Notes: a model not told the origin generated them from the sequence alone. A stretch of 39,069 nt of DNA from GCA_964501035.1 CAZCRK010000010.1:1-39069; one strand, 5' to 3'; positions 955 through 39,069 are shown, counted from the first letter of the stretch. Numbers and translations are program-made.

Positions 955-1153
955 TTTTTATGCATAAATAGTGTTTCCAAAATTTATTTTAATATTTTTA
1001 ATCTTCATGTGCTAATCCTATTTCTTGTTTCTCTTAAAATCTACTCAAATTACAAATTAATTATTAAGTCTTTTTTGACTCATAACACTTGACTAGTTAC
1101 AAATTTAATACATTTCTAGAAAGAAATTTAACAAGTTAAATATATTAAATAAG

Positions 1154-1795: not shown

Positions 1796-3054
1796 TATGA
1801 TTTCACCCGTAATAAGTCTGTCATTCGTGTGGTATAGCATGGCGAAAGTCTTTCTTGTCGCAACTTCCATTTTCTTGCAAATCCATTAACACATAACCGT
1901 ATTTTCATTCGACCATATTCTTCATTAATATTATCTATTGCTTTCATTAGATGGTGTCGTTTTTCCACATCTTCAATATTATCAAAAAAAGTTAGTTGCA
2001 CCTTTGATTGAGGAATAATATCTGACATAATCACCCCCGCTCGTTTATAAATACAATCATTTCGATAAATCCCCCGCAAACCTTCAATTGCTTTGGTAAC
2101 AATTTCAAGTGAATCATTGGTCGGGGTGCTAAAATGTATTTTCCTTACACCGCTGTAATTTACTCTATATTCTTGTTTAAATGGGTTAGTTAGAATAAAA
2201 ACTGTCATTGTTTTTGCACAGCTTTTTTGTTTCCGTAACTTTGAAGCACACATAGACGCATATGTACTTAATGCTTGCGCCAACTGTCGGATATTATCTA
2301 CCTCTTGTCCAAATGTACGAGAGGTACAAATAGATTTTTTGGATTGTGAATTTATTTCCAAATTAAAACACGGTATTGCACGCAACTCTTTAACCATTTT
2401 CAACCCAACAATAGACATATGGTGCTGTATCCACTTGTCTGACCGTATTGTGAGGTCATATGCGGTGCGTATTCCATAAAATGATAACTTTTTAGCATAC
2501 TGCCGTCCCACTCCCCATAATTTTGCTAAAGGAAACTCCTTTAAAGAGTCACTAATTTGATTCATATCATCAAGTATAAATACTCCAGATTTCGTGGTAT
2601 GCTTGGCAAGATGATTTGCAACTTTTGACAATGTTTTAGTGGGAGCTATACCAATAGAAATTGGAATACCTGTATATTGAGTTACTTTTTTTCGAAGGTT
2701 CATTCCAAATAAGTGTATATTATCAATACCATTGCAATCTAAAAATGCCTCATCAATAGAGTATATCTCAATTTGCGGAACTTCTTTCGATAATATCGAC
2801 ATAACTCGTTGAGATAAATCACCATATAATGCAAAATTCGTAGAAAATACAAATACACCATTTTTATCAAATATATGTTTATTTTTGAATGCAGGTGCTC
2901 CCATTTCTATTCCCAATGCTTTTGCTTCATTAGATCGTGCAATGACACAGCCATCATTATTGGATAATACTACCACAGGTTTTTCTCGAATTGAAGGATT
3001 GAACACGCGCTCACAAGATGCATAGAAATTATTACAATCAGCAAGGGCAATCAT
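1795..3054 (-). CDS. umuC: Y-family DNA polymerase V subunit UmuC
   Basis: [32 protein letters not shown]-terminal [13 protein letters not shown]; directly downstream of umuD. Confidence 0.95.
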
Positions 3055-3446
3055 CGATACTTACGAATAGAATATGGTACAACACCCCAAATTTCAAAGT
3101 CCATTTCTGCCGTTACTTTTATTGGGTGATATTGGGAATTGTATGGAATTAATACGGGTTCATTATGGGCATGAGATAATTGCTTTACCGTAAACTCTCC
3201 GCAAATTAATGCAACCACGATATCCCCATCTTTAGCTGTAAGCGATCTATCAACAATAAGAATATCACCATCGTGAATTCCAATTTGCACCATTGAGTCT
3301 CCATTAGCATATGCCATAAATGTAGCAGATGGATTTCTGATAAGATATTTATCCAAGCTTATTGACAGGTCTGTAAAATCCTCTGCTGGAGAGGGAAACC
3401 CTGCTGGAATAAATGATATTTCTAATTGTTTTTCTATGATTTGCAT
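3051..3446 (-). CDS. umuD: DNA polymerase V subunit UmuD (S24 autopeptidase)
   Basis: AGFPSPA cleavage motif, GDSM catalytic Ser, FTVK catalytic Lys, IWGVV. ATG 3446 preferred over the track start 3497; ATGA overlap with umuC. Confidence 0.93.
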
Positions 3447-3452
3447 TATAAA

Positions 3453-3502
3453 TACTCGTATGTTACTCGTATATTTTACCAACCTTGTTAAATACAATGC
3501 AA
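3453..3502 (-). promoter_or_regulatory. Putative umuDC promoter with adjacent direct-repeat operator
   Basis: Minus strand TTGCAT (3502-3497), 18 nt spacer, TGGTAAAAT extended -10 (TAAAAT 3478-3473). Immediately followed by ATACGAGTA twice (3472-3464, 3461-3453). Confidence 0.5.
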
Positions 3503-24004: not shown

Positions 24005-25397
24005 TGAAAATGTTTTACATTCTAGCTACAAGTTTGTTTATTTTTTCGTGCTCAAAAACTTTGGATATTAATGATTTCTCAAGTGATTTCTATGGATATG
24101 AATCCGAAATTAAAATTGAAGCCGTAATTTTACCCACTGAAAATACCGCAATTGTTCGCATCGATAGATCATACACCTTAAATGACACTACACTGTTTGA
24201 TTGTTTAGATAATGATGGTGATTGGGATATTCTTTTTGATGATTTAGGAACAGATGGAGTGGATAGTGCTTCAAATGCATGGCTCTCGCCTGATGAAGAT
24301 GGAACCGAGGGAAATGGAATTCCTGATTGTGGTGAACCTCATGTTGATGAATATGACGAAGTATTACCAAAAATTCATATAACGGATTGTACTGTAGCTA
24401 TTAAACACAATAATGAAACATGTGAAATGGTTTTTGATTCTACCGCCGGTTCATTTTTTTATAATGAATACAAAGGGTATCACTCAATGAAAGGAACAGA
24501 AATTGCTTCCTATGGTGCGTATGTTCCAAATTCTTGTAGTAATGTTAACTGGCAAGATTTTGAAGGTGAATATTCTTTTACTGCTGAATGTCCTGAATTT
24601 GAAGAAAATGGACTAATTATATCTAATACACCTATTCAAATTTCTCAACCAGTTGTATTTTTTGATTATTTAGACTTTGAGAGTATGTCTAATTGCCAAA
24701 CACAAGACTGTCTTGCATCGAGTACTTCAATTACAGACAATGATACATTGTTTTTTGCTAAACATTCTGATGACCAATTCCTTTTTTATGCATCGTTGTT
24801 AGATTTTCCATATTTCCAGTTAATGCAGTTTCATCAATCCAAGGAAGATGATGCATATTATTTAACGCATGAACATCCACTCCAAGCGACTGATGTAGAA
24901 CATATAATTGGCAATGTATGTTTAATACCTGAACCGATTGTAACAGATTTTGTAGATTTTGATGAAGATGAAATTGGTGAATTAGATGTTTCAAAATATG
25001 TAGTTTATACTTTCTCGGAAAGTTTTACAAACTACTACTTTTTTGACCTTTTGGATATTCAAGACCCAGAAAGAAGCAATTTAAGAGATGCATCTGGAAA
25101 CACAATTATGGGTACATTTGGTTCCATGACATCCAATTCTATAAATTTACGAATTGTCGATTGTNNNNNNNNNNNNNNNNNNNNNNNNNNNNNNNNNNNN
25201 NNNNNNNNNNNNNNNNNNNNNNNNNNNNNNNNNNNNNNNNNNNNNNNNNNNNNNNNNNNNNNNNGGGTACATTTGGTTCCATGACATCCAATTCTATAAA
25301 TTTACGAATTGTCGATTGTAACCAATTTACTAATGGAAATGACTGTTTAGAAAATTCAAAGGGAGTTTGTGATTGTTATCAATACAAAGTTAAATAA
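24004..25397 (+). CDS. Acidic lipoprotein partner of the TonB receptor (DUF4249-like), interrupted by an assembly gap
   Basis: Lipobox-like FIFSC (Cys16), TAATG coupling to the receptor, late motif SNL......MGTFGS. Collapsing the duplicated 55 bp around the Ns gives a 412 aa ORF ending ...RIVDCNQFTNGNDCLENSKGVCDCYQYKVK. Confidence 0.72.
25110..25319. other. Scaffold gap (100 N) flanked by an identical 55-bp overlap
   Basis: 25110-25164 is identical to 25265-25319; Ns at 25165-25264. Confidence 0.95.
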
Positions 25398-25398
25398 T

Positions 25399-26331
25399 TT
25401 AGCTTCTAATAAACTTAATATTGCGTTTTAATCCAGAGTACTTTGTTCTTTTTACTGCACTTTTTTTAAATAATTTTTTATACTCAATTTCAGATAAAGT
25501 AAACCATTCTTCCAAGGTGCGATGTTGTAAATTGCTTCTGGGTTTAAAATGAGTATCTTCTGTATGAGTTTCATCTTTGTGGTTCCATGGGCATACTTCC
25601 TGGCAAATATCACAACCATAAATCCATCCATCAAATTTACTACCAAGTTCTGATGGAATTTCGTCCCTGTTTTCTATCGTGAGGTATGAAATACATTTGT
25701 TTGAATTGATCACATAGGGATTTTTAATTGCGTGGGTTGGACATGCATCCAAACACGCTGTGCAGGTTCCACAATAATCTTCTAAAAATGGATTATCATA
25801 ATCAAGTTCTGTGTTTACAATTAACTCACTTAAAAACACCCATGAACCCATTTCTGGACTAATTAAGTTGCTATGTTTACCAATCCATCCCAAACCTGCC
25901 CGTTGTGCCCACATTCTTTCCAAAACGGGTGTTGTATCCACACTAACAATTCCTTCTATCTTTGAGTTTAAACTTTGAATAAAAGAAAGTAAGTCAAACA
26001 GTCGTTTTTTGATAATATCATGATAGTCATCTCCCCAAGCATAGTTAGATATTTTTCCTACACCTTCAGAGGAATCCGCATTACCTGTAAAATAATTGGT
26101 TGCTAAACTAATGATAGATTTGGCTTCAGGATAGTAATTGAAAATATTACTTCGTTCATCTTTTCGCTTTTCCATCCAATGCATTTTTGCATGAAAATTT
26201 TTGTTAAACCATGTATCTAAACGGATTTTATCTTGAGGATATTCTTTTGCGGGTGTTACTCCAACCAAACTAAACCCTAAATCAATTGCTTTTTGTTTGA
26301 TTAACTGAGTTACATCACCGATGTTTTTCAT
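25399..26331 (-). CDS. queG: Epoxyqueuosine reductase
   Basis: YAWGDDYH, VDTTPVLER, AGLGWIGK, CGTCTACLDACPT, CISYLTIE, GCDICQEVCPWN. Confidence 0.96.
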   Translation of the reverse strand: MKNIGDVTQLIKQKAIDLGFSLVGVTPAKEYPQDKIRLDTWFNKNFHAKMHWMEKRKDERSNIFNYYPEAKSIISLATNYFTGNADSSEGVGKISNYAWGDDYHDIIKKRLFDLLSFIQSLNSKIEGIVSVDTTPVLERMWAQRAGLGWIGKHSNLISPEMGSWVFLSELIVNTELDYDNPFLEDYCGTCTACLDACPTHAIKNPYVINSNKCISYLTIENRDEIPSELGSKFDGWIYGCDICQEVCPWNHKDETHTEDTHFKPRSNLQHRTLEEWFTLSEIEYKKLFKKSAVKRTKYSGLKRNIKFIRS

Positions 26332-26335
26332 GGGG

Positions 26336-27064
26336 TTAAAGGGTGTCTAATAAATTTGTAGCTTCATCTATTAATAAGACATCACCTTCATCTTTAGCGG
26401 GCAAAGAGATAGCAATTTCAAATTCCTGTTTAGCACTATCTTCTTGGTCTAGCTCAATATATGTTTTACCTAGCCACACATGATGCCGAACATCGTCAGG
26501 TGCTACAGAAATCGCCTTAATAAAAAATTCAACTGCTTTTTCATAACTACCTTCTGGCGGTGCTTCATATACCCAGCTTGCAATTTTGCGTTCAAACCAA
26601 CTTAAGTTTGAAATTTCATAATGCCATCTACCCATTACATGATAGGTTCCATCATAGTTTGGGTCTAACTCAATTGCTTTTAAAGCAAATTTTTCAACAT
26701 CATATGAGTTAATTATTTTTTGTTCAGTTCCTTCTAACATTCCAATTTTACCAATTAACACAGCATACCAATGGTGTGCTCTTGCCGAATTTGGATTTAG
26801 CTCAACAGCTTCTTTAGCAGATTCAAACCCAGGATAAAAATGAGTTTTATGAATTGAAATATCACTCGTTTGGTCTGCAATTTCAAAATGAGCACTCGCT
26901 TTTCTCCATAGCAACTCAGCATCTTGAGGATATGCCGTCATTAAACTATTTATTTCTTCTAAGGCAAGTTCATATCGACTATGATCAATATGTTCATCGA
27001 TTATTGTAAACCTATCGTCGGAAAATAAAACCCCAATACAGAGTATTAACCAAACAATTCTCAT
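26336..27064 (-). CDS. Exported TPR protein resembling the RMDN (regulator of microtubule dynamics) TPR domain
   Basis: Signal peptide; ELLWRKA, AHHWYAVLIG, KAIELDP, MGRWHYEISNLSWFERKIA, PPEGSYEKA, LGKTY. Confidence 0.75.
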   Translation of the reverse strand: MRIVWLILCIGVLFSDDRFTIIDEHIDHSRYELALEEINSLMTAYPQDAELLWRKASAHFEIADQTSDISIHKTHFYPGFESAKEAVELNPNSARAHHWYAVLIGKIGMLEGTEQKIINSYDVEKFALKAIELDPNYDGTYHVMGRWHYEISNLSWFERKIASWVYEAPPEGSYEKAVEFFIKAISVAPDDVRHHVWLGKTYIELDQEDSAKQEFEIAISLPAKDEGDVLLIDEATNLLDTL

Positions 27065-27066
27065 AT

Positions 27067-27867
27067 TTAAAACCTTTCAGAATACATAATTTTCACTTCA
27101 CGATTTGTATAATCAGCACCTACTTTTTTATTAATATCATTAAAGTTTACTTCGAGCATTAAATTAGATGCAACAGACCAACGAATACCTGCATTTAATA
27201 GACCAACCTTCCCACCGAATGTAATATCGTCTAAATTATTTATTTCATAATCATTTTCATTAAGAGCTGCATTATATTCAATTAAGAACGAAAAACTCCG
27301 ATTAAGTTCTTTATCTATTCCAAAAAAGAAATTTACATCTTCATCACCGTCATCATTTTCGGTTATCGATTTATTCAACCCAATATGAACACCCAAATTC
27401 CCCATCACATTCCAATTTTTGGAAGATATTACATACATTCCCCAAGATTTTACTTCATATTTATTTACTTCTGTTGAGTCAGTTTCACTTTCATAAATAT
27501 AATTATGGTATGCACCTTTACCTTGAGTATCTAACCCAAACACAATAGCTGGTCTTGATTGGGTTTCTTCAAATGCTCTATATTTTACTTGAACTTCTGG
27601 CGATGCTTTGTTTATACTTGGTTCATTATTGCCTATAAAATTTTGAACACCATATGACATTCCAAAACTAAAATTGTCGGTTAGTCCAACAAATAATCGT
27701 GGTAAAATTCCACCATTTTTCATTAAGATAGTTTCAAATGTAAACGATCCTTTTGGTAAAGTTCCAGCAGTTGGAATCGTCACTAAATCTAAAGGTGGAA
27801 ATGGTTGCTCACTTTGTGCAAAAATGGCTGAACCAGTTAACAATATTAGTAATATTTTTTTCATCAT
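27067..27867 (-). CDS. Outer-membrane beta-barrel protein (YjbH-like)
   Basis: Signal peptide, LVTIPTAGTLPKG, KYRAFEE...PAIVFG, YVISSK, FFGIDK, LNAGIRW, C-terminal F. Confidence 0.65.
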   Translation of the reverse strand: MMKKILLILLTGSAIFAQSEQPFPPLDLVTIPTAGTLPKGSFTFETILMKNGGILPRLFVGLTDNFSFGMSYGVQNFIGNNEPSINKASPEVQVKYRAFEETQSRPAIVFGLDTQGKGAYHNYIYESETDSTEVNKYEVKSWGMYVISSKNWNVMGNLGVHIGLNKSITENDDGDEDVNFFFGIDKELNRSFSFLIEYNAALNENDYEINNLDDITFGGKVGLLNAGIRWSVASNLMLEVNFNDINKKVGADYTNREVKIMYSERF

Positions 27868-29018
27868 TTAGAATTTCCTATTTTACTTGATACAATTTCT
27901 TGGGTAACAATATTCCCAAATTTATCCTTTTCAATCACTTCGTACTGAGCAGTTTTTGGATCAAAAATACTTTCAAACTCTCTAATTTTAGTATCTGAGT
28001 TACCTAAATACCATGATTCATTAATCAAATGGTTTTTCTCATCATAATCCATTAAAATGTTTCCAATAGAATACCCATTCATAGATTCAAATTGGTATGA
28101 TTCAATGAGACCATCTTCTGTGTAGAATATTTTTAATAAGTGATCATAATAATGAGGAACAAAACCGGGTGAAAATATATAATCAAAAAACCGATTTGAA
28201 ATTGAATTTTCTCCAAACCATGCTTTAAATTTTGGTATGCCGTTTACTGAATCTTGGAAGTAATCTAACAACCCATTTTGCTTGTACACATAAACACGCT
28301 TTAATACTGTAGAATCTAATTCACTTCCCCAATAAATACTGGAAACTCGACCATTATTATTGCGTAACACTCGCATACTATGATCAGGATCAATTTGATT
28401 TTTAAATAACTGCAAACCTTTCACTAAAGCGTTCATATCTTTATAATATTCGAAATCGACCTGAGGAGTCATATCAACCACTATATCTTCATTCTGTGTA
28501 ATAAACTCTTCAATTTCTTCTGAGAGTTCAGGACGTAAGTCACGTAAATAATATAAATAGTCTTTGTAGCTTTTTAATTTTAACCTATAATATTCATAGG
28601 TTTCAATATATTGCCGTTTGATTATATTTGCTTGAGTTTGAAATACATTTTTTTCTTTAGCTTTCTCTGACCAAGTTAAAGGTTTGTATGTATATTTTAA
28701 TTCCGGTTTATCACCAGCAATAATATAAGGTTCTTCTCCGAGTTCTTCTTCAAATTTTCTAATGTATTGAATAAACTTAACATCAATTTCATTAAACCGA
28801 GAATCTAGATATTTATGCTCTTCATAGATTGCATGTGCTACGGATTGGTAGAATTGATGTTTATCATTTTCAACATCAATTATATCTGCAATTTTTTCAA
28901 AATCTAAGAGATCATTAATAGATTCTTTTACTTCATCAACAAGATATGGGCTATCAACATTAACCGAAAACAATACAGTCAAAAAAACAAACCAAACTAA
29001 GTTGAATATCTTATTCAT
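27864..29018 (-). CDS. Hypothetical exported protein
   Basis: 384 aa, hydrophobic N-terminus, helical first half and Tyr/Gly-turn beta-hairpin-like second half; ATGA overlaps on both sides. Confidence 0.65.
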   Translation of the reverse strand: MNKIFNLVWFVFLTVLFSVNVDSPYLVDEVKESINDLLDFEKIADIIDVENDKHQFYQSVAHAIYEEHKYLDSRFNEIDVKFIQYIRKFEEELGEEPYIIAGDKPELKYTYKPLTWSEKAKEKNVFQTQANIIKRQYIETYEYYRLKLKSYKDYLYYLRDLRPELSEEIEEFITQNEDIVVDMTPQVDFEYYKDMNALVKGLQLFKNQIDPDHSMRVLRNNNGRVSSIYWGSELDSTVLKRVYVYKQNGLLDYFQDSVNGIPKFKAWFGENSISNRFFDYIFSPGFVPHYYDHLLKIFYTEDGLIESYQFESMNGYSIGNILMDYDEKNHLINESWYLGNSDTKIREFESIFDPKTAQYEVIEKDKFGNIVTQEIVSSKIGNSK

Positions 29019-30613
29019 CGAAGAATTTCATTTACAATTAATACTATATCAATTACATTTATAATCATATCACTATTTCCATCAGCGATGCAATACTGGG
29101 TATCGGTAAAATTTACTTCATCTAAAATATAATTGACAACCATTACAATATCTATTACGTTTAAAACTAAATCTTGATTTACATCACCATTTGGTGTGCA
29201 TTCATTTTCAACAAAATTCGTTGAACCTGGCGTACCATAATCGCCATTTGACATTAACTGTATCGATGTAGACCAGTTTTCACCATTATCATTTTCAGTG
29301 GCAATATCTATCAATTGTATGCTTGCGCCCGTTGGGTCGGGAAACGTTGAACCATTATCGTATGCAACACAATCAATCATTTCTCCAGAAGGAATTCCAA
29401 TGCATACTTCATCCCAAGAATTACTCAAGAAAAAATTTGAATACTTATAATCTACAGAAATATTTCCGTTTAAAGCAGTGTTGTCTTCAATACCCAATAC
29501 AATAAACTCATTTGGGGCTAAATTTAAACTTCCACCATTCTGAATTTGATGGTAATCTTCACCTGTATCGTATATCGTAAGTCCATTAAGATCAATAATA
29601 TCACTCCCAATATTAGTTAACTCAAACCACTCTCCATATGAGTCCGATACAGCTTGGGGGTTTTGCATAATTTCATTAATGATAAGCCCTGTTGGAGCTT
29701 CAATTTGTTGAAGTACAATCGACCAATTAACTGGACGATGGTCTGAAATATTGGTTTGATATGATGAACTACCAATATAATTATCTAATCGAATAGTTTG
29801 AATATCACTATCGTCAACATATTCCATAAGTGAAGATGAAATCAAAATATGGTCTATAAATGAATTAGTCCCCCACGGATGACTATTATAGTAATTATTA
29901 TTTGCAATTGGGGTAGTTGTAAAATACATTTCATTCGAGTCAACCAATGGCCAAAGTGAGTTATTTGATTGAGAGTTTGTTATCTCATCATTAAAATCAC
30001 CTGCAACTATCACATGATTTGGACTTTGATTTTCAATGTAATTTGCTAAAATTTCTGAAGCAAGTAACCTACGTTCAAATCCATCATTACAACATTTAAA
30101 ATGCACATTTATTATTTGTGTGCTTAATGAAGAGGTTCCACATCCCCACTGTATATTCACCATTAGGGGATTACGATACGCAAACTCCCAACCGTCATAA
30201 GGGAATAATGTTTGGGTATTTGTAATAGTTACACAATCTGAACGCACAGCGATAGCTAAATCATATCCAGAATATCCACCATCAGCTTCGTAGTCAGTAT
30301 GAACAAATTCATAGGCAGGCAAATTGTTTGCTAAATTGTTCAAACTACTTAACTGGCTAACTTCTTGAATTGCAATAACATCAGGTAGCATATCAGTTAT
30401 AATTTCTTGCACATAACTAATTGTATTGGATGTTGCAGGAAATTCTCGAATGTTCCATGTCATAACTTCTAGCCCATTCCAGTTATTTACTACAGGAATA
30501 TTCCAATTATTTTGCATGGGATTTATAGACAGTGTATCAGTTGGTGGGCATTCCTGTGCTATAACTACACTTGCTAAAAGGAAATAAATAATATGGTTAC
30601 ATAATTTTCGCAT
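29015..30613 (-). CDS. Secreted EEP (DNase I-like) nuclease/phosphatase + lamin-tail domain + dockerin
   Basis: TWNI, IAIQEV, AGDFND, IDHILIS, SDHRPV; LTD motifs LIINEIMQNP, GEWFELTN, GTPGSTN; dockerin GDVNQDLVLNVIDIV...ADGNSDMIINVIDIV. Confidence 0.88.
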   Translation of the reverse strand: MRKLCNHIIYFLLASVVIAQECPPTDTLSINPMQNNWNIPVVNNWNGLEVMTWNIREFPATSNTISYVQEIITDMLPDVIAIQEVSQLSSLNNLANNLPAYEFVHTDYEADGGYSGYDLAIAVRSDCVTITNTQTLFPYDGWEFAYRNPLMVNIQWGCGTSSLSTQIINVHFKCCNDGFERRLLASEILANYIENQSPNHVIVAGDFNDEITNSQSNNSLWPLVDSNEMYFTTTPIANNNYYNSHPWGTNSFIDHILISSSLMEYVDDSDIQTIRLDNYIGSSSYQTNISDHRPVNWSIVLQQIEAPTGLIINEIMQNPQAVSDSYGEWFELTNIGSDIIDLNGLTIYDTGEDYHQIQNGGSLNLAPNEFIVLGIEDNTALNGNISVDYKYSNFFLSNSWDEVCIGIPSGEMIDCVAYDNGSTFPDPTGASIQLIDIATENDNGENWSTSIQLMSNGDYGTPGSTNFVENECTPNGDVNQDLVLNVIDIVMVVNYILDEVNFTDTQYCIADGNSDMIINVIDIVLIVNEILR

Positions 30614-30655
30614 ACTATAATTTACGACAACAAGGATAAGATGTTACTATGACAA

Positions 30656-32578
30656 TTACTTAATGGGAAATGATAACATTACAGGCAAATGGTCTGAAAT
30701 ATATGTCTCATAGATTTCAAAGCTACCCATGTAATCTGCCATTGGAAGTGTTTGTACAAAATAATCTGAATTTGGCTCAACCAGTGAATTTGACACTAAA
30801 ATATGATCCAAAAAACTCACATAGGGTTCTTTGGGGTAAGATGCTTGACTTATATCAAACGTTATATCCCATGTTGGGAAAAAATATGCATTATCATCTA
30901 AAAATGGTTGAAAACAATGTTCAGTTGGGTCATCTTTCAAATCATCATTCCAATCACCCAATACAATAAAATGAGTCCCATCCTTTTCTGCTTCATCTGA
31001 TACATACTCATGTAGTGATTTCACTGCTTTTTGACGTCTAGATAATCCAGAATTACAACATTTCATGTGTAGATTAATGACAGAAAATGGAAGTTGATTG
31101 TCCCCATCATTATAAATAAAATCTGTTCGCATAGGTGGTCTTCCAGCAAAATTATAATCACTTTCAGAAAATGGTTCTACAATCCGTTCGAGTGTAAACA
31201 AATTTTTCTTGAATATTATCGCTTGGTCCATAAATGAGGATTGTTTGGACACTTCAAAGCTATATTCAGGTAGTAATTTTATTAATTTACTAAACCACCC
31301 GGTACGTTTAATTTCCTGAAATGCAATAATATCTGCTGAAAAATCATGAACAGCCTCAGCTAGTGCAAGAATTGTAGAATCATTGGCATGTGGGAAAAAT
31401 TCACAATTCCAAGTTAATATCTCAATATTTTGCTCAGAATCAAGATTGGGGAAATCCCAATTATCAAATTGAAATTCACTGAATTCATTCTTTAAAACTT
31501 CAGTAGAATTAATTTCATTCTTCGAATGATAATAGGTTTCTAATGCAGTTTCCTGTTTTTCCCGTATCCATTTCAAATCCTGAAAGTTGGGCTGGAAATT
31601 ATCTGCTAATAATGATTGGCTTACGTCACCATCAATTTCAGTTTCAACACCTAATAACATATGAGATTCAGCATCAATTGTTAATTTCAGATGGGTAAAT
31701 GAATTCCCATAATTTTGCATTGTATAAACATGGGAAAATGGATCATACCAAAGTGACCTATACCCTTTGGAGTTTCCACCAGTAACAATTAAATCAGCCC
31801 CCTGGGCAAAATACCCCATTTCGATTGCATTTAATGATGTATTATTGACATCTTTAGTATCTAGATCACTCAAAAACTCTTCATAAACCTTTTCTCTTTC
31901 CCATGGGATACCAGCGCTGGTAAGCACAACTATCACTTCAGCTCCTTTTTTGCGCAAAATGGGTATCCATTTTTCAAGAGTTGGTTTTTCGTAATCTAAT
32001 GTAATATTTCGTAGATTTTCATTAAGAACTAATTCTGGAATTTCAGAATGGACAACTCCTAATATTCCTACTTTAACACCTTTTATATCCTTAATTATAT
32101 AGGGTTTAAAATTTTGAGATGTTAATGGGCAATTATTACACTCTACATTTGCACCAACAAAAGGGAAATTGGCAGTGTTTATGAGTGTATTTAAATTATT
32201 AACTCCCGATATAAAATCGTATCGAGCTGGAACCACTGCATCATATTGAATTCTATTGAACCATTCAATCATACTTTGTCCATTATCAGCCATTCCAAAG
32301 GGAGTACCTTGAAAAAAATTACCACCATCAAGTAATAAAACACCTTCATTATGATTGATTGCTTCTTCCCGAATATCATCAACATATTTTGAAAAACCTG
32401 CTCCACCCACCATATCAGGTGGATACTCTGGATTCATCCAGTAAGCCTTATCCTCAGTAATGGCACCATGAATATCATTTGTAGTAATAAGGTGAATATT
32501 AATTGTTTGCTCGGAGTTGGACAAACAAAATGAACTCATTAATATTGAAAGAAATAGATTTGAAAATTTGAATTGCAT
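30656..32578 (-). CDS. Fusion of a degenerate 5'-nucleotidase-type metallophosphoesterase domain and an EEP nuclease domain
   Basis: N-terminal TTNDIHG, LLDGGNFFQGT, ANFPFVGAN, PYIIKDIKGVKVGILG; C-terminal TWNCEFF, AFQEI, LGDWND, LDHILVS, SDHLPV. Start ATG 32578 or 32587. Confidence 0.85.
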   Translation of the reverse strand: MQFKFSNLFLSILMSSFCLSNSEQTINIHLITTNDIHGAITEDKAYWMNPEYPPDMVGGAGFSKYVDDIREEAINHNEGVLLLDGGNFFQGTPFGMADNGQSMIEWFNRIQYDAVVPARYDFISGVNNLNTLINTANFPFVGANVECNNCPLTSQNFKPYIIKDIKGVKVGILGVVHSEIPELVLNENLRNITLDYEKPTLEKWIPILRKKGAEVIVVLTSAGIPWEREKVYEEFLSDLDTKDVNNTSLNAIEMGYFAQGADLIVTGGNSKGYRSLWYDPFSHVYTMQNYGNSFTHLKLTIDAESHMLLGVETEIDGDVSQSLLADNFQPNFQDLKWIREKQETALETYYHSKNEINSTEVLKNEFSEFQFDNWDFPNLDSEQNIEILTWNCEFFPHANDSTILALAEAVHDFSADIIAFQEIKRTGWFSKLIKLLPEYSFEVSKQSSFMDQAIIFKKNLFTLERIVEPFSESDYNFAGRPPMRTDFIYNDGDNQLPFSVINLHMKCCNSGLSRRQKAVKSLHEYVSDEAEKDGTHFIVLGDWNDDLKDDPTEHCFQPFLDDNAYFFPTWDITFDISQASYPKEPYVSFLDHILVSNSLVEPNSDYFVQTLPMADYMGSFEIYETYISDHLPVMLSFPIK

Positions 32579-32580
32579 TT

Positions 32581-33240
32581 TTACCATTTACCGTACATTG
32601 GATTAGGAAAAATAAATTTATTTAATCCCCAAACATAGTTATCATTTTCTGGAAAATCACCCATTGCATCCCCAAAATATGCTAACACTTGATAACTACC
32701 ATATTCACTCATTCGATTTGTACCATCTAACACTTCTTGACGTCTAATATATTTTTTATCTGATTTGTTTTGACGTAGTAGATAGATGTCTGATTTATGA
32801 CCAACCTTCAAATTTAACATGTTTACACGTGTTGCATCCGTTCTATCAGCCATTCTATTGCTTATAAACACAAATCTGCAATCAGGAATGGTCCTCATGC
32901 TATCAATAAATGCTTTTGCACCTGGGACTAAACTTGCTTCAGCTCTATTCACCCAATCTGCCCAACTTTCCATATTGAAGGATTCCCCTTTTTCAACAAG
33001 TTCAACTTGGTATTGAGAATTATCCAATACTGTTTCATCAAGATCCATGACAATCACCCAATCACTGTTCTGATGTTGAGCTTTTGATTTCAAAGATTTC
33101 CAAGCAGTTTGATACGTCTGCTCACAAATTGAAGAATATTCAGTTGAATTTCTCACCCACCGTATATCATTGGGAAGCTTATCTTCGGTAAAGAGTAATG
33201 TAGTTGAAAAAATGAAAATTGAAACTATAAACCTTATCAT
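32581..33240 (-). CDS. Class C acid phosphatase / 5'-nucleotidase, e(P4) family (HAD)
   Basis: DLDETVLDNS, VPGA, FISNR, FGDAMGDF, FPNPMYGKW. Confidence 0.92.
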   Translation of the reverse strand: MIRFIVSIFIFSTTLLFTEDKLPNDIRWVRNSTEYSSICEQTYQTAWKSLKSKAQHQNSDWVIVMDLDETVLDNSQYQVELVEKGESFNMESWADWVNRAEASLVPGAKAFIDSMRTIPDCRFVFISNRMADRTDATRVNMLNLKVGHKSDIYLLRQNKSDKKYIRRQEVLDGTNRMSEYGSYQVLAYFGDAMGDFPENDNYVWGLNKFIFPNPMYGKW

Positions 33241-34520
33241 AATAGATAACCTACTGAAAGAAGTATTGATAAATTTGATTCTCTAACCATATCTAAATCT
33301 TGTCTTAAGTCACCCTCAACCTTAAACACATCAGGATAATTATAGGTTTGCAGAGAATATGTTCCTGCAATTTCTAATGTTAACTTACCAATGTTTCTAC
33401 CAAATCCAGCTGTAAAGGTACTTTCCGGAGACAGTGCTTTAAACGGGTTTGTTTTATATGTTAAACCCGATCGAATTGCAAGGGAATTTGGGAGTCTATA
33501 TTCAAATCCAATTCCAATTTTTTGAGTATTTTGTATCCACGGGGACAGATTTGAGTAAATTGCTTTTGAATATTGGAATGTTAACTCAATTGGATAACTG
33601 CCTTTGGGTAAAAATGAAACTCCTAGGGAAAATATTTCGGGTTTATAAAATACTGGTGCAATACTATCCAGTAAATGTATTTGATAGTTGGTATCAGGTT
33701 CCCAGTATAATGGTAAGTAAGAAAGTGTATCTAACACAATATTTACATCAGTATCAATCCCAGATTCATATATTACATTCATTTTAACTTCATTAAATAT
33801 GACTTGAGTGCTTACTGTATTAAAATTATAGGAAGGAACTGTCCAACTAGTATCCAGTGGAGCAATATCAGCAATATTCATCGTATCAGAGTCAATTACA
33901 TCATATCCCATTGTTTCATATACAATAGTTTTGTCAGTGATGTGTTGACTTAATCCAACTTGTAATGAAAATTCATTTGTTTTTAAGACTTCAAGCCCAA
34001 CACCAGCAGAAAGAACATTAATCGTTCCATTTCTGTTATAAATATGATAACCAATTAATGGATCTTTGATACCAATCTCCCCATCCTCTAAACTCTTACT
34101 ACCCCGAACTTCTTCTTCATAATAATAATCATATGAAGTTAATGGGTTATACCCAATTGACACAGTACCTAAATTCAAGATATGATACATAAAACCAAAA
34201 GAAAAATCACTAAATTTATTTCGATTTGAGACATAATCTGCTTCAGTCAAATAATCATCAAAACTATCTTTAACTATTAAACTTCTCCGTTCTAGATAGG
34301 AATTTGAATGTAAATTAAAATCAAACGATATTCCCTTTATTTGCGATAATGATGCTGGATTGGTTAATACAAGTTGTGACGATAGCGAATTAAAATGTGT
34401 ATTTCCCATTGACACGGATTTAGCTGAGCCAGTTTCTGCTAATTCTCCAATTGTACGATTAAAAAAACTCTGTGCTGATAACATTGAGCACATGAATAAA
34501 ATTATTAATTTATAATGCAT
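33237..34520 (-). CDS. FadL/PorV-like outer-membrane beta-barrel
   Basis: Signal peptide, SAKSVSMG...NPASL hatch-like motif, IGIGFEY...AIRSG, FTAGFG, ends LSVGYLL. Confidence 0.7.
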   Translation of the reverse strand: MHYKLIILFMCSMLSAQSFFNRTIGELAETGSAKSVSMGNTHFNSLSSQLVLTNPASLSQIKGISFDFNLHSNSYLERRSLIVKDSFDDYLTEADYVSNRNKFSDFSFGFMYHILNLGTVSIGYNPLTSYDYYYEEEVRGSKSLEDGEIGIKDPLIGYHIYNRNGTINVLSAGVGLEVLKTNEFSLQVGLSQHITDKTIVYETMGYDVIDSDTMNIADIAPLDTSWTVPSYNFNTVSTQVIFNEVKMNVIYESGIDTDVNIVLDTLSYLPLYWEPDTNYQIHLLDSIAPVFYKPEIFSLGVSFLPKGSYPIELTFQYSKAIYSNLSPWIQNTQKIGIGFEYRLPNSLAIRSGLTYKTNPFKALSPESTFTAGFGRNIGKLTLEIAGTYSLQTYNYPDVFKVEGDLRQDLDMVRESNLSILLSVGYLL

Positions 34521-37158
34521 AATCTACCTGTATTCTAAAATCTGTATTTTCTCCACTGACATAAGGATTATGTAGCCAATTTCCAGCATCCGTTTGCCCC
34601 TCTGTAACACGCGTTGAAGGTGCATCTATTGAATGACTAAACTTAAACCTGACTGTCATGAATTCAACGGGTTTAACATTAAAGGAAATCCAATTATGAA
34701 ATGACCCTGATTCACTATTAAAAATTCTAAAATCTGTATCCTCAAAATACCATAAAAATCCACTTATAAACACTGAACCTGCTTTTAATGTAAAACGACT
34801 ATCAAAGTGATGCTCAAAACTCACACCAATTGATTCATCTGGTGCACCAATATCGCCCACCATCATTTCACTTCCATAAGGGTTATCTGTTAAACGTGGT
34901 CTCGGTGAAAAAGTAGTATAACCATTTGAGTAAAGTAATTCAATTTTATTGTATTTTGACATTCTCATTTGTATTCTTAATCGTGTTTCACGAGAGTAAA
35001 ATGGACTCGGATGCTGGATATCATTTTCACCTCTTGCTTGCCATTTTTGTCTAAGATTTATACGATAATTAAAAACTGGTCTCCAAGTGAGTGATACAAC
35101 ATTTCTGAAATATTTTGCATTATCTGCTTTTCTATTCCAAACGTCAATATTAAATGTTGCTGTCAATGATCGATAAAATTGATACCTGCCAGAAAAAAAG
35201 ACTCCTTCCTCAGCTTGTGGTTGAGGATTTCCTGAGTATAAATATGAATAAACTGGATCTTCAAGCCAATAACTATCTTCAAAAATAGACGTTTTATATC
35301 TTTGATAATTTGAAAATGATCGTTGATAGGGGTTGTCATAACCAATATCATAATCTCTATAAAGTAGAAGAAAATTTAAATTACTAAACTGAAAGAATGA
35401 GCTAACTACAACGGCTTTTGGATTAACTTCATTGTCTTTCGTGAGTTCTCCATATTCACCCTGAAAAGAAACATTTCCTATTACTGTTGAAAAATCAAAA
35501 CCTGTAACCCGCCTAAAAGATTGCGCTTTATCCCATAAAGGAGATTGACCGTTAGATTCATACATTGCAGCAATTTCCGGGTCAGCTGAATTTGTCATAT
35601 ATGAGTTATAATATGCATCACCCGAATAATTATCATAATCAGAAGCATCAAGTTCTGGGTTGTTATCATCCGCCCCACCTGTAATAGTTTCTATCACCTG
35701 TGGAATAAGCCGCCTGTCGTACAGACTTTCATAAAAAGTAAATCCAATTCTTGTGTTTATTGTTGGAGTAAATCTTATGTTACCACCCCATGTTACTTCT
35801 TCCACAGATTCTGTTAACTTATGAAATATTTTTGTTGTATCTCCATTTACACCAAAGGGTAGCCTTGGCTGCATGGTAATCAAAGTCGTAAAACTTGGAA
35901 TGGTGTCTAATATACCATTATTGTCAAAATCTTCAAAAAATTCTGAATCATCCCATTGATTATTATTATCGGTATCAATGAATGGTTCAGTTTCATCCCA
36001 TTGACCGTTTTCATTTAAGTCCGTGTAGAATTCTGCTGAATCCCACTTCCCATTTTCATTTGCATCAATGTAAGGCTCCACATCATCATTAATTATTGCA
36101 TCTCGATAATGTTTTGAAACAAACATTGACACGCGTAAAAATGAATTTGAAAATTGTGAGGCAATTCCATCCATTACAAATTGGCTTGAGCGAGTTAAAT
36201 CCGAATAAATGCCATCCTGTCGTTTTGAAAAACCAAAACCTGTACGACGAGGACTAAAGTAATCACTACTTTCAAAAATTACACCTTGACCAAATGAAGC
36301 TGTAAAATTTCCAATAACCAATTTATCTAACTTTGCTCCTAATAAATCTACATTTTCAATTGATAATGATCTTTTTTCAGTAGAAATATTGGATGGATTT
36401 CCAAGGTGTTTATATTGCAATAATCCCGCACTTAAATTCTGACCATAATTCATTGATAGTCTATGAAACAGTTCAGGGTGAGAAGGGTCTAAAAATTGAG
36501 ATGTTGCTCCTTCTTCATCTGGGCTTGTTGTTGTGGGAACAGTTCTAACTAAGTTTGTAAATCGCCAATGGAACTCAGAGTTTGATACGCCTTCATCACT
36601 TGGAAAACGTATAAAATCAATTAAGTTTTTATACCCCCAGCGACTTAATCCTGGTGCATTTTTCAACTGAAAATCACCCTCTATTTTTCCCATTTTTTGT
36701 TGTTTTAGAACAGCTACAACATCAATCGGACTCAAATTTGGAAGTGCACTTAACTCATCAAAAGACATTTTATTAATATCACGTGGATCATAAAACCTAT
36801 CTAACCAAAAATCAGATAATCCTTCAGTATTACCTTCATCTGAAAGCCACTGATCTACTTTGTAAGAAGACCTTTTTAAGTTTGCAATAAACTCCGAATA
36901 CTCTTTATGACCTATTACAATATATGGTTTTATATTATAAACATCCTCTGCAGAAATCCCATGTGCATCTAGCAACTCATAAATATTAGATATGCTCCCA
37001 ACTTTTAACAGATAATTTTCAATTTGGGTGATTTTTGATTCACTAAGTGGTAATTGCATCAATTCGCTATGAGAGGCAAAATTAATATCAATTAAAATTT
37101 GATTTTCATTTGCAATTAAAAAGCAAAATGTAAAAAACCATAGATATATTTTACTCAT
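34510..37158 (-). CDS. ComEA-like helix-hairpin-helix outer-membrane beta-barrel protein with acidic Ca-binding-like repeats
   Basis: IDINFASHSELMQLP and DINKMSFDELSALPNLS (HhH_3-like), VIGNFTASFGQGVIF, long amphipathic C-terminal strands ending RIQVDYAL. Confidence 0.75.
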   Translation of the reverse strand: MSKIYLWFFTFCFLIANENQILIDINFASHSELMQLPLSESKITQIENYLLKVGSISNIYELLDAHGISAEDVYNIKPYIVIGHKEYSEFIANLKRSSYKVDQWLSDEGNTEGLSDFWLDRFYDPRDINKMSFDELSALPNLSPIDVVAVLKQQKMGKIEGDFQLKNAPGLSRWGYKNLIDFIRFPSDEGVSNSEFHWRFTNLVRTVPTTTSPDEEGATSQFLDPSHPELFHRLSMNYGQNLSAGLLQYKHLGNPSNISTEKRSLSIENVDLLGAKLDKLVIGNFTASFGQGVIFESSDYFSPRRTGFGFSKRQDGIYSDLTRSSQFVMDGIASQFSNSFLRVSMFVSKHYRDAIINDDVEPYIDANENGKWDSAEFYTDLNENGQWDETEPFIDTDNNNQWDDSEFFEDFDNNGILDTIPSFTTLITMQPRLPFGVNGDTTKIFHKLTESVEEVTWGGNIRFTPTINTRIGFTFYESLYDRRLIPQVIETITGGADDNNPELDASDYDNYSGDAYYNSYMTNSADPEIAAMYESNGQSPLWDKAQSFRRVTGFDFSTVIGNVSFQGEYGELTKDNEVNPKAVVVSSFFQFSNLNFLLLYRDYDIGYDNPYQRSFSNYQRYKTSIFEDSYWLEDPVYSYLYSGNPQPQAEEGVFFSGRYQFYRSLTATFNIDVWNRKADNAKYFRNVVSLTWRPVFNYRINLRQKWQARGENDIQHPSPFYSRETRLRIQMRMSKYNKIELLYSNGYTTFSPRPRLTDNPYGSEMMVGDIGAPDESIGVSFEHHFDSRFTLKAGSVFISGFLWYFEDTDFRIFNSESGSFHNWISFNVKPVEFMTVRFKFSHSIDAPSTRVTEGQTDAGNWLHNPYVSGENTDFRIQVDYAL
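35905..36078 (-). repeat. Four 15-aa acidic repeats E-[PF]-[YF]-x-D-x-[ND]-x-N-[GN]-x-W-D
   Basis: EPYIDANENGKWDSA / EFYTDLNENGQWDET / EPFIDTDNNNQWDDS / EFFEDFDNNGILD. Confidence 0.85.
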
Positions 37159-38039
37159 TAAAAGCGATATCCAATATTATATTGATGTGTTATTGGAAGA
37201 GTTGGGTGGGATAATATTCCATACGAAAAGTTTACACCAACCATATGCAATTCTAAACCTACTCCAATTCGATTTGGGTTGGACTGGGTTCCTACACGAA
37301 ATAATACAAATTGGTTTAATGTGTATTCAACGCCAGCTTTTATCTGCTTATCTTTTTGACCAAGCGTTCGTTCTAAGGCTAATGACGTTACAACATTCTG
37401 GTACGGTATGAGCGAAATACCAGCATTTATTTTACGAGGTAAAGGTTGAGATGACATACCTCTTCCAATTTCAGGGGAATTAACATTTGTCATACATACA
37501 CCAACCCTGTATTTATCTCGTAATACAGCTAGTAAACCAATATCAACACCTATAGCCGATAAACTTCCAGATGTTAATCCATCACTTCCGTCACCACTCT
37601 GTCCAGCGGATTTACCTAAATTCCAATCAAGGAAATGTAAGGTGTAACCAAATGAAAGTTTTGAATTTCTATCCTTTTGTATATAGATTCCGTGACTCAA
37701 TCCAATATTCTGCTCGGATGATAAAGTATTGTCTCCATAGTTCACACTCATTTCTTGAACTGAAAACCCAAACGTCCCAACTTGGGAAACATTTAATGAA
37801 ATAGCAAAATGAGAAAAGGGTAAAAATGATAAATTAAATATATTTGTAAACCCAACTGACAACTCGTTTGATTCAATTTCTGTTAGTCCAGCAGGGTTAT
37901 GAAAAACACTATTGACATCCCCTTTGTTTGCTACCATAGAGCCAGATAATGCAGTTGCTTTTGCTCCAATATATGAATAATCACTCACAACTTGTGAAAA
38001 TGAAATATTTACAATTATGATTAAAATTAGTTTTTTCAT
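37158..38039 (-). CDS. PorV/PorQ-like outer-membrane beta-barrel
   Basis: GAKATALSG...SVFHNPAGL, GVDIG, NVNSP, AGVEY....FRVG, YGILSHPTLPITHQYNIGYRF. Confidence 0.75.
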   Translation of the reverse strand: MKKLILIIIVNISFSQVVSDYSYIGAKATALSGSMVANKGDVNSVFHNPAGLTEIESNELSVGFTNIFNLSFLPFSHFAISLNVSQVGTFGFSVQEMSVNYGDNTLSSEQNIGLSHGIYIQKDRNSKLSFGYTLHFLDWNLGKSAGQSGDGSDGLTSGSLSAIGVDIGLLAVLRDKYRVGVCMTNVNSPEIGRGMSSQPLPRKINAGISLIPYQNVVTSLALERTLGQKDKQIKAGVEYTLNQFVLFRVGTQSNPNRIGVGLELHMVGVNFSYGILSHPTLPITHQYNIGYRF

Positions 38040-39069
38040 TAGTGAGATACCCCCACAACAATTGGCGCTGAATCTGTTGCAGTTTCACCAGTCGTAAAAT
38101 TCATGGTTTCAATATGCATAATATAGGTTCCTGGGGATACAATTTGTCCTAAGTGGTCACGTCCATCCCATGAGGATGAATTTTCATTATTTGTGACTAC
38201 ACCACCATCTGAATAATATTGATCAATCAATGATGTTATAAATTGTCCATTTAAATTATAAATTCTAACAATTACTCTCGAGTTTGATGAAAAAGAATAT
38301 GTAAAATCTAATCGTTCATCTAATGTTGGAATAATTATAAATGGAGCTGGAGAAATAGTTGTATCAACAGATTCATCGTTTTCAAATTCTCCTTCACCAT
38401 CAATCACTTCTAAAATTGAAATATCTTCTTCATATTCAACGACTACTTGCCAGTCACTGAAAATATCCAATTCATTGCCATTTCGACAATATACATCTAA
38501 TGTGCCCGATATTTGAATTATATACCTTCCAAAAGGACCTTCTGTGATGTCACTTAAACTAGTTTGTAAAATATCAAATCCATCTTGGTAAGAACTGCTC
38601 TCAGGCCAAACAACAAATGCAATCCTGTACCCATTGTCATCTTCTAATGTGAAGCTGTAAGGTCCGTTACTTCCTGTAATATCATAGAAATCTACAACAG
38701 TTCCAGTAATTGAAACTTGAGTATTAACCAAGGGACAATCTGCAGGGTTAGCTAAATCATAATTTCCATCACACGTAATTACATCAACCTCACAATTATT
38801 GATTATTGAAAGAAACGAAAGTGTACAACTCCCATCATCAATTTCAGCACTGGGGTCATAATTCGGAGCATAAGGGTCAGTACAACCCATTGATACTAGT
38901 GAAATAACCTCCCATGACTCCCTAAAGTTTTCACTGGTTTCGTCATGTCCAGATAATCCATTTCCGTCTGACAAGATTTCGTCTATTTCCTCTAAACTAG
39001 ATACTCTTGAAAAAGCATAATAGTCTTCATGAGATGTTTCAAAATACAATTGGTCTTCAGCTGGAGTAT
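38039..39069 (-). CDS. Large secreted protein, C-terminal part: Cys/Asp linker motif, OB-fold-like domain, FlgD-Ig/T9SS-CTD-like domain (5' end outside window)
   Basis: Frame stays open to the right edge (..TPAEDQLYFETS..). GCTDPYAPNYDPSAEIDDGSC; VSITGTVV...FTLEDDNG...IQISGTLDVY; VRIYNLNGQFITSL...WDGRDHLGQIVSPGTY. Confidence 0.72.
   Translation of the reverse strand, partial: TPAEDQLYFETSHEDYYAFSRVSSLEEIDEILSDGNGLSGHDETSENFRESWEVISLVSMGCTDPYAPNYDPSAEIDDGSCTLSFLSIINNCEVDVITCDGNYDLANPADCPLVNTQVSITGTVVDFYDITGSNGPYSFTLEDDNGYRIAFVVWPESSSYQDGFDILQTSLSDITEGPFGRYIIQISGTLDVYCRNGNELDIFSDWQVVVEYEEDISILEVIDGEGEFENDESVDTTISPAPFIIIPTLDERLDFTYSFSSNSRVIVRIYNLNGQFITSLIDQYYSDGGVVTNNENSSSWDGRDHLGQIVSPGTYIMHIETMNFTTGETATDSAPIVVGVSH

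Follow-up and report, generated by a model that had tools for sequence, protein, structure and literature searches.

A conserved, outer-membrane-centred gene cluster of Candidatus Marinimicrobia with a putative role in the scavenging of extracellular DNA

The window analysed here is a DNA stretch of 39,069 nucleotides (GCA_964501035.1 CAZCRK010000010.1:1-39069), which represents the entire contig C10 of a 1.87-Mb genome (95.7% complete); the close matches to its genes are named Candidatus Marinimicrobia, Neomarinimicrobiota or Fidelibacterota. A total of 11 open reading frames (ORFs) follow each other on the minus strand, from position 39069 down to 25399; neighbours either overlap by 1-11 bases or are separated by 2-42 bases. 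The letters F to O given to the genes follow the order of transcription; genes D and E lie further upstream, on contig C64 of the same genome. An earlier note on this DNA had described seven consecutive, co-oriented genes that overlap or abut, all apparently for exported proteins, and had interpreted them as a locus for the capture and digestion of DNA or nucleotides. These seven genes (F to L) are present in the ORF listing, and five of their six junctions are overlaps of 1-11 bases, the remaining junction being a 42-base gap. The window holds the 3' two-thirds of a predicted operon of approximately 20 kb that is conserved through much of Marinimicrobia, and the cluster is thus larger than first reported, with D and E upstream and three further genes for apparently exported proteins (M, N and O) downstream. 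As judged by crude hydropathy, all proteins D to O begin with a hydrophobic N-terminal segment (that of F is encoded on C64), in agreement with the proposed export of all seven.

Gene F (38039..39069, minus strand) is open at its 5' end, and the window holds the 342 C-terminal residues of the LTD-OB-CTD surface protein that it encodes (LTD, lamin-tail domain; CTD, C-terminal domain). The first 55 bases of C64 (9277 bases) are the last 55 bases of the window and the frame of F continues there, into an N-terminal part of 202 residues with a signal-like segment and a lamin-tail domain; the complete protein would comprise about 527 residues if both parts were joined. The two pieces were kept physically separate in the analysis, and the join is regarded as sound, because both halves match within a single ORF (387-958 residues) in 19 related loci. 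In an AlphaFold2 (AF2) model of the window part of F (pLDDT 76), residues ~80-222 form an OB fold, with MCM, the anticodon domains of AsnRS/LysRS, RPA, PolC and HIN as structural matches (Z 9-10.8, rmsd 2-3 A), and residues 232-342 correspond to PorU's C-terminal domain (Z 10.1). At the level of sequence alone, a homologue of F matched the Pfam tRNA_anti-codon OB model with 29.8 bits, over the gathering threshold (GA) of 27, and F itself scored 19.0 bits against the tail model TIGR04183 of type IX secretion systems (T9SS), under the cut-off of 23. The N-terminal extension of one F homologue (locus L035) appeared cohesin-like by eye and was rejected as a candidate, there being no Pfam cohesin match.

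The earlier note had proposed that the genes beyond position 39069 be inspected, and C64, besides completing F, adds two LTD-rich surface proteins. Protein E (832 residues) combines an LTD and a pair of PKD-type domains with a dockerin, and the OB-like N-terminal region of the ExeM/NucH model occurs in it twice (4e-25); protein D (1057 residues) has, besides a dockerin, three LTDs that match ExeM at 4e-52 and a tail of T9SS type A (36.2 bits; cut-off, 23). With a tail over the cut-off (TIGR04183 / PF18962) and a T9SS in the genome, the cluster can be said to encode T9SS type A cargo through D. The cut-offs of the complete ExeM/NucH models (NF033681, NF033680) were not reached by E (88.6 of 300 bits; OB part only, twice), D (177.4 of 1300 bits; LTD part) or K (17.4 of 300 bits), and L had no match to these models at E<=0.01. 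Beyond D, C64 encodes a YibQ-type deacetylase and, at its far end, two PorV/PorQ-like barrels.

Three outer-membrane barrels follow F. Gene G (37158..38039, minus strand) encodes a barrel of the PorV/PorQ superfamily (293 residues), which matched NF033709 (PorV_fam) at 4.4e-18 with 65.9 bits, under the cut-off of 90, and stayed below the cut-offs of NF033710 (15.4 vs 250 bits) and NF033711 (27.2 vs 220 bits); G is therefore predicted to be a superfamily relative of PorV and PorQ and not an equivalog. Gene I (33237..34520, minus strand) encodes a FadL/TbuX-like barrel (427 residues), for which the family profile matched TbuX (1.2e-12), FadL (5e-10), TodX and PorV (4.5e-8) in the PDB, over ~170 C-terminal profile positions only; as a single sequence, I had no Pfam match and weak NCBIfam matches to BamG and PorV_fam. 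The G and I families are related to each other (hhalign 97.9%).

Gene H (34510..37158, minus strand) encodes a protein of 882 residues with two ComEA-type helix-hairpin-helix (HhH) modules (residues ~19-185), followed by a large beta-barrel (residues 194-882). Pfam HHH_3 was matched with 29.6 bits, over the GA of 27, and the H family profile matched EEPD1 (1e-13, in two stretches) and ComEA (2e-7) in the PDB, which fits the presence of two modules. In the AF2 model, calculated from 37 sequences (pLDDT 75.5, pTM 0.73), residues 1-185 are helical and the barrel has roughly 24-27 strands. Residues 19-83 superpose on ComEA 8dss with Z 11.3 and an rmsd of 1.4 A over 65 residues (31% identity). Both the HhH and the OB assignments of the earlier note hold structurally. 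The barrel itself gave generic large barrels only in structure comparisons (Foldseek, VIA-align); it was best covered by the 24-strand ushers PapC/FimD (363-368 residues aligned, rmsd 4.5 A) and by MtrB (397 residues aligned). One loop of H contains, as an insertion, an Asp/Asn-rich repeat (DxNxNGxWD-like) that resembles calcium-binding repeats (residues 361-418; window 35905-36078); it is variable among the homologues and of low model confidence, and a similar stretch occurs in another gene of this genome (G000:C13:20011-20148).

Where an outer-membrane barrel has an N-terminal domain, this domain is usually periplasmic, and the HhH modules of H would on this ground more likely lie on the periplasmic side; by this analogy, they would represent a fused ComEA-like receptor on the inner face of the outer membrane. 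ComEA itself is small, free or anchored, and works with a secretin and a pilus, whereas in H two such modules are fused to a barrel of ~690 residues that is paired with a PorV-like barrel.

The three genes after I encode predicted hydrolases. Gene J (32581..33240, minus strand) encodes a HAD-IIIB (class C-like) acid phosphatase of 219 residues. It matched PF03767 with 103.9 bits (cut-off, 27) and both Asp-pair motifs are readable in the translation; its score against the e(P4) model TIGR01533, 110.6 bits, is under the cut-off of 216, and its N-terminal segment is devoid of Cys, i.e. J is not a lipoprotein. The class C, e(P4)-type phosphatase of the earlier note is hence retained as to fold and motifs, and J is predicted to belong to the broader HAD-IIIB family, outside the e(P4) equivalog. 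Gene L (29015..30613, minus strand) encodes 532 residues with an EEP domain (51-292), an LTD (306-418) and a dockerin (476-531) as defined by Pfam. Gene K (30656..32587, minus strand) encodes a 643-residue fusion of a degenerate 5'-nucleotidase-type metallophosphoesterase (residues ~25-250) and an intact EEP domain (residues 391-633). The EEP domains of L and K scored 54.6 and 51.4 bits, respectively, against PF03372 (GA, 24.5). The catalytic motifs of EEP enzymes are N, E, H, GDxN, DH and SDH, and all six are intact in each of the 21 K- and L-type domains inspected.

Of the seven domain calls that had been made initially, six are borne out by hidden Markov model, profile or predicted fold, and the seventh, the metallophosphoesterase half of K, is upheld in its fold and not in its activity. 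The N-half of K matched CpdB/UshA in NCBIfam (1e-21 to 1e-18, N-half only) and 5'-nucleotidases in the PDB (1e-12, phmmer), and the K of the window had no Metallophos or 5_nucleotid_C match in Pfam. Metallophosphatases are characterized by the motifs DxH, GD, GNH[DE], H and GHxH; when compared with a solved 5'-nucleotidase, the K of the window has GN in place of GD, ARYD in place of GNHE and GGNS in place of GHxH. In an alignment of this K with 19 homologues, the 14 long forms (13 and that of the window; 626-680 residues, one of 1002 residues), all with a C-terminal EEP domain, have lost GNH[DE] and GHxH in every case and GD in 13 cases, whereas the six short forms without EEP domain (544-549 residues; loci L043, L044, L046, L047, L049 and L052) have kept all metal-binding and catalytic motifs. 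The short K of L043 consists of Metallophos and 5_nucleotid_C in Pfam. The short orthologues are thus predicted to be true 5'-nucleotidases, and the ancestral or alternative gene at the K position would be such an enzyme.

Conservation of the cluster was examined in approximately 20 kb around H from 20 genomes of 12 families, chosen for long contigs and searched with 17 proteins of the window and C64; these loci were picked by the presence of H, and the counts hence show what goes with H and not the reverse. G-H-I are adjacent on one strand in all 20 loci, and the core of the cluster is kept throughout the 12 families, as the synteny check proposed in the earlier note had called for. F lies directly upstream of G-H-I in 19 loci (the twentieth is cut by the contig end), and D- or E-like proteins with LTD, PKD or CTD are found further upstream in 19. 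K directly follows I or J in 18 of the 20 loci; in L037, K and L lie upstream on the other strand, and L038 has no K in the stretch. At the K position, six loci have the canonical, intact 5'-nucleotidase, and in 12 of the 20 loci K is followed by another EEP gene or domain. J was found in three loci only, all of family f3. Gene order, the genes themselves, their predicted folds and the state of the catalytic motifs are what the analysis shows.

Among the 201 phylum genomes sampled, 121 have a match to H (E<=1e-5), of which ~100 are strong on the barrel and the others weak and seemingly confined to the HhH modules; H was not found in the families f7 (0/13; genomes of ~1 Mb), f20 (0/6) and f28 (0/9). 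In a scan of genome contigs for H, only Marinimicrobia-type records were present in the best 80 of 278 matches. Three loci labelled as Winogradskyella or Flavobacteriales metagenome-assembled genomes (MAGs; L078, L079 and L093) have an H that is 50-60% identical to that of the window, no less close than in Marinimicrobia records, and these are probably mislabelled or wrongly binned contigs.

The genome encodes SprA over the cut-off and a PorU-like protein (309 bits), and eight PorV/PorQ-family matches were found (G000 contigs C93, C103, C18, C58, C6, C1 and C64); four loci of the genome other than G pass NF033709. Several of the PorV/PorQ-family genes lie near genes for CTD-bearing proteins. 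Cohesin domains are encoded at three sites (G000 C29:10273-10890, C9:623-1375 and C52:3232-3525), one of them in a 254-residue ORF that also ends in a T9SS-type tail, and dockerin tails, or dockerin and CTD tails, are encoded on more than 25 contigs, which suggests, at the level of predicted domains, a cohesin-dockerin surface display that is tied to type IX secretion. Across the phylum, sprA was found in 198 of 201 genomes and is near-universal, and its presence can therefore not be correlated with that of H; in 13 genomes, sprA lies on the same contig as H at a distance of 10-34 kb (e.g. G164:C30, G029:C1, G011:C22, G178:C1 and G197:C6), and in G017 and G130 the distance is 190-260 kb.

These data bear on the view that G, H and I are accessories of type IX secretion or surface attachment that serve the CTD and dockerin proteins, with the nuclease-like genes being just neighbouring cargo. 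The membership of G and I in the PorV/FadL superfamily, the proximity of sprA in the 13 genomes, the two further PorV/PorQ-like genes on C64 and the abundance of CTD and dockerin tails in this genome would all be accommodated. Nevertheless, a strong match to the H barrel is found in about half of the genomes only, no T9SS component is known to carry HhH modules, and relatives of H occur in candidate division WOR-3 and Elusimicrobiota, which are not known for T9SS; we regard this explanation as very improbable. A likeness to SprA-PorV, PorQ-PorZ and PorV-PorU exists insofar as, in each of these, a PorV-family barrel is fixed together with a larger barrel or a CTD-bearing protein. H is, however, far smaller than SprA and shares only a generic likeness with it (Z 10.1, rmsd 9.8 A), and G is under the PorV cut-off. 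By analogy with PorV-PorU and PorQ-PorZ, G and I may anchor CTD proteins or may be partners of H.

The H family extends beyond the phylum. In the full protein library clustered at 50% identity, the H profile matched 166 clusters at E<=1e-30, a number that rose to 1602 at E<=1e-10, and ten more distant full-length hits derive, where named, from Gemmatimonadota, candidate division WOR-3, Elusimicrobiota and Ca. Caldipriscus; they are annotated only as HhH-domain or 'ComE-like' DNA-binding proteins. Atlas look-alikes of H also come from Cloacimonadota and Bacteroidota. Three distant loci from metagenomes (two of them of one lineage) have housekeeping genes (SHMT, PdxS/T, AcpS and FtsH) as neighbours of H. 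In one of the three, the gene immediately preceding that of the H-like protein encodes a 271-residue relative of barrel G (hhalign 98.5%); in L150, the 409-residue protein encoded next to the distant H shows no relationship to I. A further distant H-like protein (P0194, 1251 residues) has TPR repeats N-terminal to its HhH module; in the operon of the window, a TPR protein is encoded separately (O, 26336-27064). The distant loci examined carry no nuclease genes, from which the H family is taken to be older than its association with nucleases, and the G-H pair, in at least one distant lineage, predates the nuclease link.

The same loci are compatible with a role in natural transformation, in which DNA would pass the outer membrane by way of G-H-I and be delivered to ComEC, and the nucleases would trim or limit the incoming DNA. 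H has ComEA-type modules, distant loci have H without nucleases (one of them together with a G-like barrel), distant relatives are named 'ComE-like DNA-binding protein' in the source records, and a ComEC domain was found in 169 of the 201 phylum genomes. ComEC was not found in the window's own genome, which is treated as an assembly gap, since all six genomes of the same family have it. This genome, however, encodes a separate small ComEA and two secretins, and H is thus not simply the competence ComEA. ComEC is also common where H was not found or is represented by weak HhH matches only (ComEC vs H: 19/20 vs 8/20 in f10, 6/6 vs 2/6 in f5 and 7/9 vs 0/9 in f28), and conversely H is present in G167 and G183, where ComEC was not found. 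The presence in one operon of two EEP enzymes and a 5'-nucleotidase would suit degradation of DNA more than its preservation, and we consider transformation unlikely as the function of the cluster.

On a narrow balance of probability, we favour the interpretation of the cluster as an operon for the scavenging of extracellular DNA and nucleotides, i.e. for capture and breakdown of nucleic acid as a source of phosphate and probably of nucleosides. Substrates, protein locations, the direction of transport and the regulation are what we infer beyond the gene content. In the proposed pathway, D, E and F would bind DNA at the cell surface via their lamin-tail and OB modules, displayed there by type IX tails or dockerins, and the EEP enzymes would cut it: L probably at the surface, as it has a dockerin, and K perhaps in the periplasm, as it has no sorting tail. 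Fragments would then enter the periplasm through or beside barrel H, whose two ComEA-type HhH modules would hold the DNA, with G (PorV-like) and I (FadL-like) as fixed outer-membrane partners of H. Phosphate would finally be freed by a phosphatase, J in the window and the canonical 5'-nucleotidase at the K position in other lineages.

The LTD, OB and EEP modules found among D, E, F, K and L are the same three that make up ExeM, a cell-associated DNase of Shewanella with experimentally proven activity, in which OB and EEP are essential and the LTD is dispensable (PMC6085458). ExeM and its relatives Xds and NucH (Shewanella, Vibrio, Aeromonas) are exported, cell-associated enzymes by which extracellular DNA is exploited (PMC6085458); their LTD, OB-type and EEP modules are joined in one polypeptide, whereas those of the cluster are distributed over five proteins with T9SS tails or dockerins. 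In Shewanella, ExeM also affects biofilm formation and detachment (PMC6085458), which is in line with another possibility, namely that the cluster serves attachment to, or release from, DNA-rich particles or biofilm matrix, with the LTD, OB and HhH proteins adhering to extracellular DNA and the nucleases serving detachment. The many display modules of D, E, F and L (CTD, dockerin, PKD), and the finding of the sequence in seawater and brine metagenomes, would fit as well. The conserved 5'-nucleotidase or phosphatase and the fixed order of three barrels are nonetheless left unexplained by attachment, and the HhH modules, N-terminal to the barrel, are more likely on the periplasmic side, as judged from other outer-membrane proteins; we give this possibility little credence.

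Several observations weigh against scavenging of DNA, and the capture-and-digestion hypothesis of the earlier note is carried forward only in part: synteny, the HhH and OB folds, the ExeM modules and the 5'-nucleotidase in six loci argue for it, and the points that follow do not. No pst/pho genes, nucleoside transporter or inner-membrane transporter were found in the window. Tight gene packing, in a compact genome, is by itself a weak argument and means little. The metallophosphoesterase half of K is predicted to be degenerate, without the metal and catalytic motifs, and the e(P4)-like phosphatase J is lineage-specific (3/20 loci); for these two reasons, not every version of the cluster encodes the dephosphorylation step. 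No FadL or PorV relatives are known to carry nucleotides, and import through the FadL/PorV-like barrels, which we infer, misfits the known cargo of these families. No EEP or LTD genes were found beside H in the three distant metagenome loci, and the H family must have a role that is independent of nucleases. Finally, the resemblance of the EEP domains to any characterised enzyme is remote: the profile of the K and L EEP domains has mannosyl-6-phosphatase 4c1r as its best solved relative (8e-9), ahead of DNase gamma (3e-4), TDP2 and ExoIII, and none of the EEP domains here is over the cut-off of any nuclease family.

The EEP result would suit a general scavenging of organophosphates, the EEP enzymes being phosphatases or phosphodiesterases that act on lipids, phosphoglycans or sugar phosphates. 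One of nine EEP sequences weakly matched sphingomyelinase, and LTDs accompany several classes of hydrolases (Mans et al. as cited in PMC6085458). Among the named NCBIfam families matched by these nine sequences, all weakly, nucleases nevertheless outnumber the others (xth, five; MnuA membrane nuclease, four; ExeM/NucH, two), and the operon encodes HhH and OB modules of nucleic-acid type and, in six loci, the canonical 5'-nucleotidase. A nuclease activity of the EEP domains is likely from this context, and a general organophosphate function appears improbable to us.

Known systems for the use of extracellular DNA were compared with the operon in its favoured role of DNA scavenging. The pathway by which Vibrio cholerae and Shewanella use extracellular DNA as phosphate source follows the same logic, with a nuclease outside the cell, UshA/CpdB in the periplasm and the release of phosphate (PMC4714964, PMC8289736). 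The short K orthologues are of UshA-type as in that pathway, whereas the UshA-type domain in the window is inactive as judged by its motifs. The Vibrio and Shewanella genes are scattered and Pho-regulated; the cluster, by contrast, is one conserved operon with three dedicated outer-membrane barrels. The DNA-degradation loci of Ca. Izemoplasmataceae likewise group several extracellular nuclease genes with phosphate acquisition and represent the nearest published parallel (PMC8289736). These organisms have no outer membrane, however, and their loci, as far as described there, include a phosphate ABC transporter and lack barrels, HhH-barrel and T9SS parts (PMC8289736); the terms 'helix-hairpin-helix' and 'T9SS' have 0 occurrences in the main text of that paper. 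Polysaccharide utilisation loci are alike in that surface binders, surface and periplasmic hydrolases and outer-membrane proteins for one polymer are co-localised. They differ by their SusC/SusD: the conserved block here, including C64, is without a SusC/SusD pair, as had been noted initially for its visible part, and without a TonB-dependent transporter.

A Marinisomatota MAG was recovered in DNA-amended enrichments, for which, in the text available of that study, extracellular nucleases are named for other taxa only (PMC8630151). In full-text searches covering the main texts of papers, no account was found of the cluster, of an HhH-fused outer-membrane barrel, or of the use of DNA by Marinimicrobia through such genes, in line with the earlier note, which knew of no description of the arrangement. 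Scavenging of extracellular DNA is known as such; the conserved outer-membrane-centred arrangement appears to be new, and the HhH-barrel family could prove new in kind.

A more far-reaching proposal for H is put forward tentatively, as possible if doubtful. H would be a pilus-independent outer-membrane translocon for DNA, its barrel having about 24-26 strands, with a built-in ComEA-type ratchet in the periplasm, that predates the split of Marinimicrobia, WOR-3, Gemmatimonadota and Elusimicrobiota; G would be partner to H as PorV is to SprA, among Marinimicrobia and at least one distant lineage, and the Marinimicrobia would have built a DNA-feeding operon around H, with the ExeM-like modules displayed at the cell surface in trans by way of type IX tails and dockerin-cohesin pairs.

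The tight packing of the genes carries on 3' of L (27864-29018, 27067-27867, 26336-27064 and 25399-26331). Gene M (27864..29018, minus strand), which overlaps L by 4 bases, encodes an exported or anchored protein of 384 residues of no known family, with no Pfam or NCBIfam match; it was found after L in 4 of the 20 loci, and in one locus (L040:623-3619) as four tandem partial or diverged copies. Gene N (27067..27867, minus strand) encodes a probable small outer-membrane protein (266 residues, the final one aromatic) with no Pfam match and no PDB profile match; in 8 of the 20 loci it is present downstream of the cluster, and its Atlas look-alike clusters, named surface antigen D15 fragment or DUF5723, provide a lead only. 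Gene O (26336..27064, minus strand) encodes a TPR protein of 242 residues with an N-terminal hydrophobic segment and with TPR and RMD1-3 matches in Pfam; it follows N in 2 of 20 loci, and its membership in the cluster is uncertain. QueG comes after O, and was found in 3 of 20 loci.

On the opposite strand, a TonB-type receptor with CarboxypepD_reg and Plug domains is encoded (21638-24004, plus strand), followed by a 426-residue protein of no known family, this pair (21638-25284, plus strand) being convergent with the end of the cluster. Neither the receptor nor its neighbour matched the SusC or SusD models. Only one of the 20 loci, from the same family, extends to this region, and it shows the C-terminus of the 426-residue neighbour. 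The remaining genes of the window are housekeeping genes, i.e. for BamA, Skp, LpxD, LpxC-FabZ, LpxA, Dxr, RseP, UppS, RNase G and L21; the other end of the window (1-3497) encodes an SRAP peptidase, a translesion polymerase pair of the UmuD/UmuC type and a PETase-like hydrolase that is truncated by the contig end.

Promoter-like sites were no commoner in the window than in shuffled sequences (91 vs 75.8 +/- 8.5), nor were terminator-like sites (7 vs 6.3 +/- 2.2), and none of the 14 sequencing runs listed as carrying the window sequence represents RNA data. A library labelled as metatranscriptomic and rated as probably DNA yielded seven contigs (151-268 bases, >=99% identity) on L, K (two), I, H, G and F, with no such contig in 25000-29220; these were not counted as expression.

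Dark and oxygen-poor ocean waters, in which Marinimicrobia (SAR406) abound, contain much organic phosphorus in the form of dissolved DNA. An operon for the harvesting of DNA throughout the phylum, if true, would provide these uncultured bacteria with a defined role in the phosphorus cycle, and would give a marker gene set that could be traced in metatranscriptomes. The cluster also records an evolutionary swap, with an intact 5'-nucleotidase in some lineages and a dead phosphoesterase-EEP fusion in others, and the lineages that hold J (that of the window and the three f3 loci) have a separate class C-like phosphatase as well. The HhH-barrel family, finally, is a candidate answer to the question of how DNA or oligonucleotides cross the outer membrane without a secretin and a pilus.

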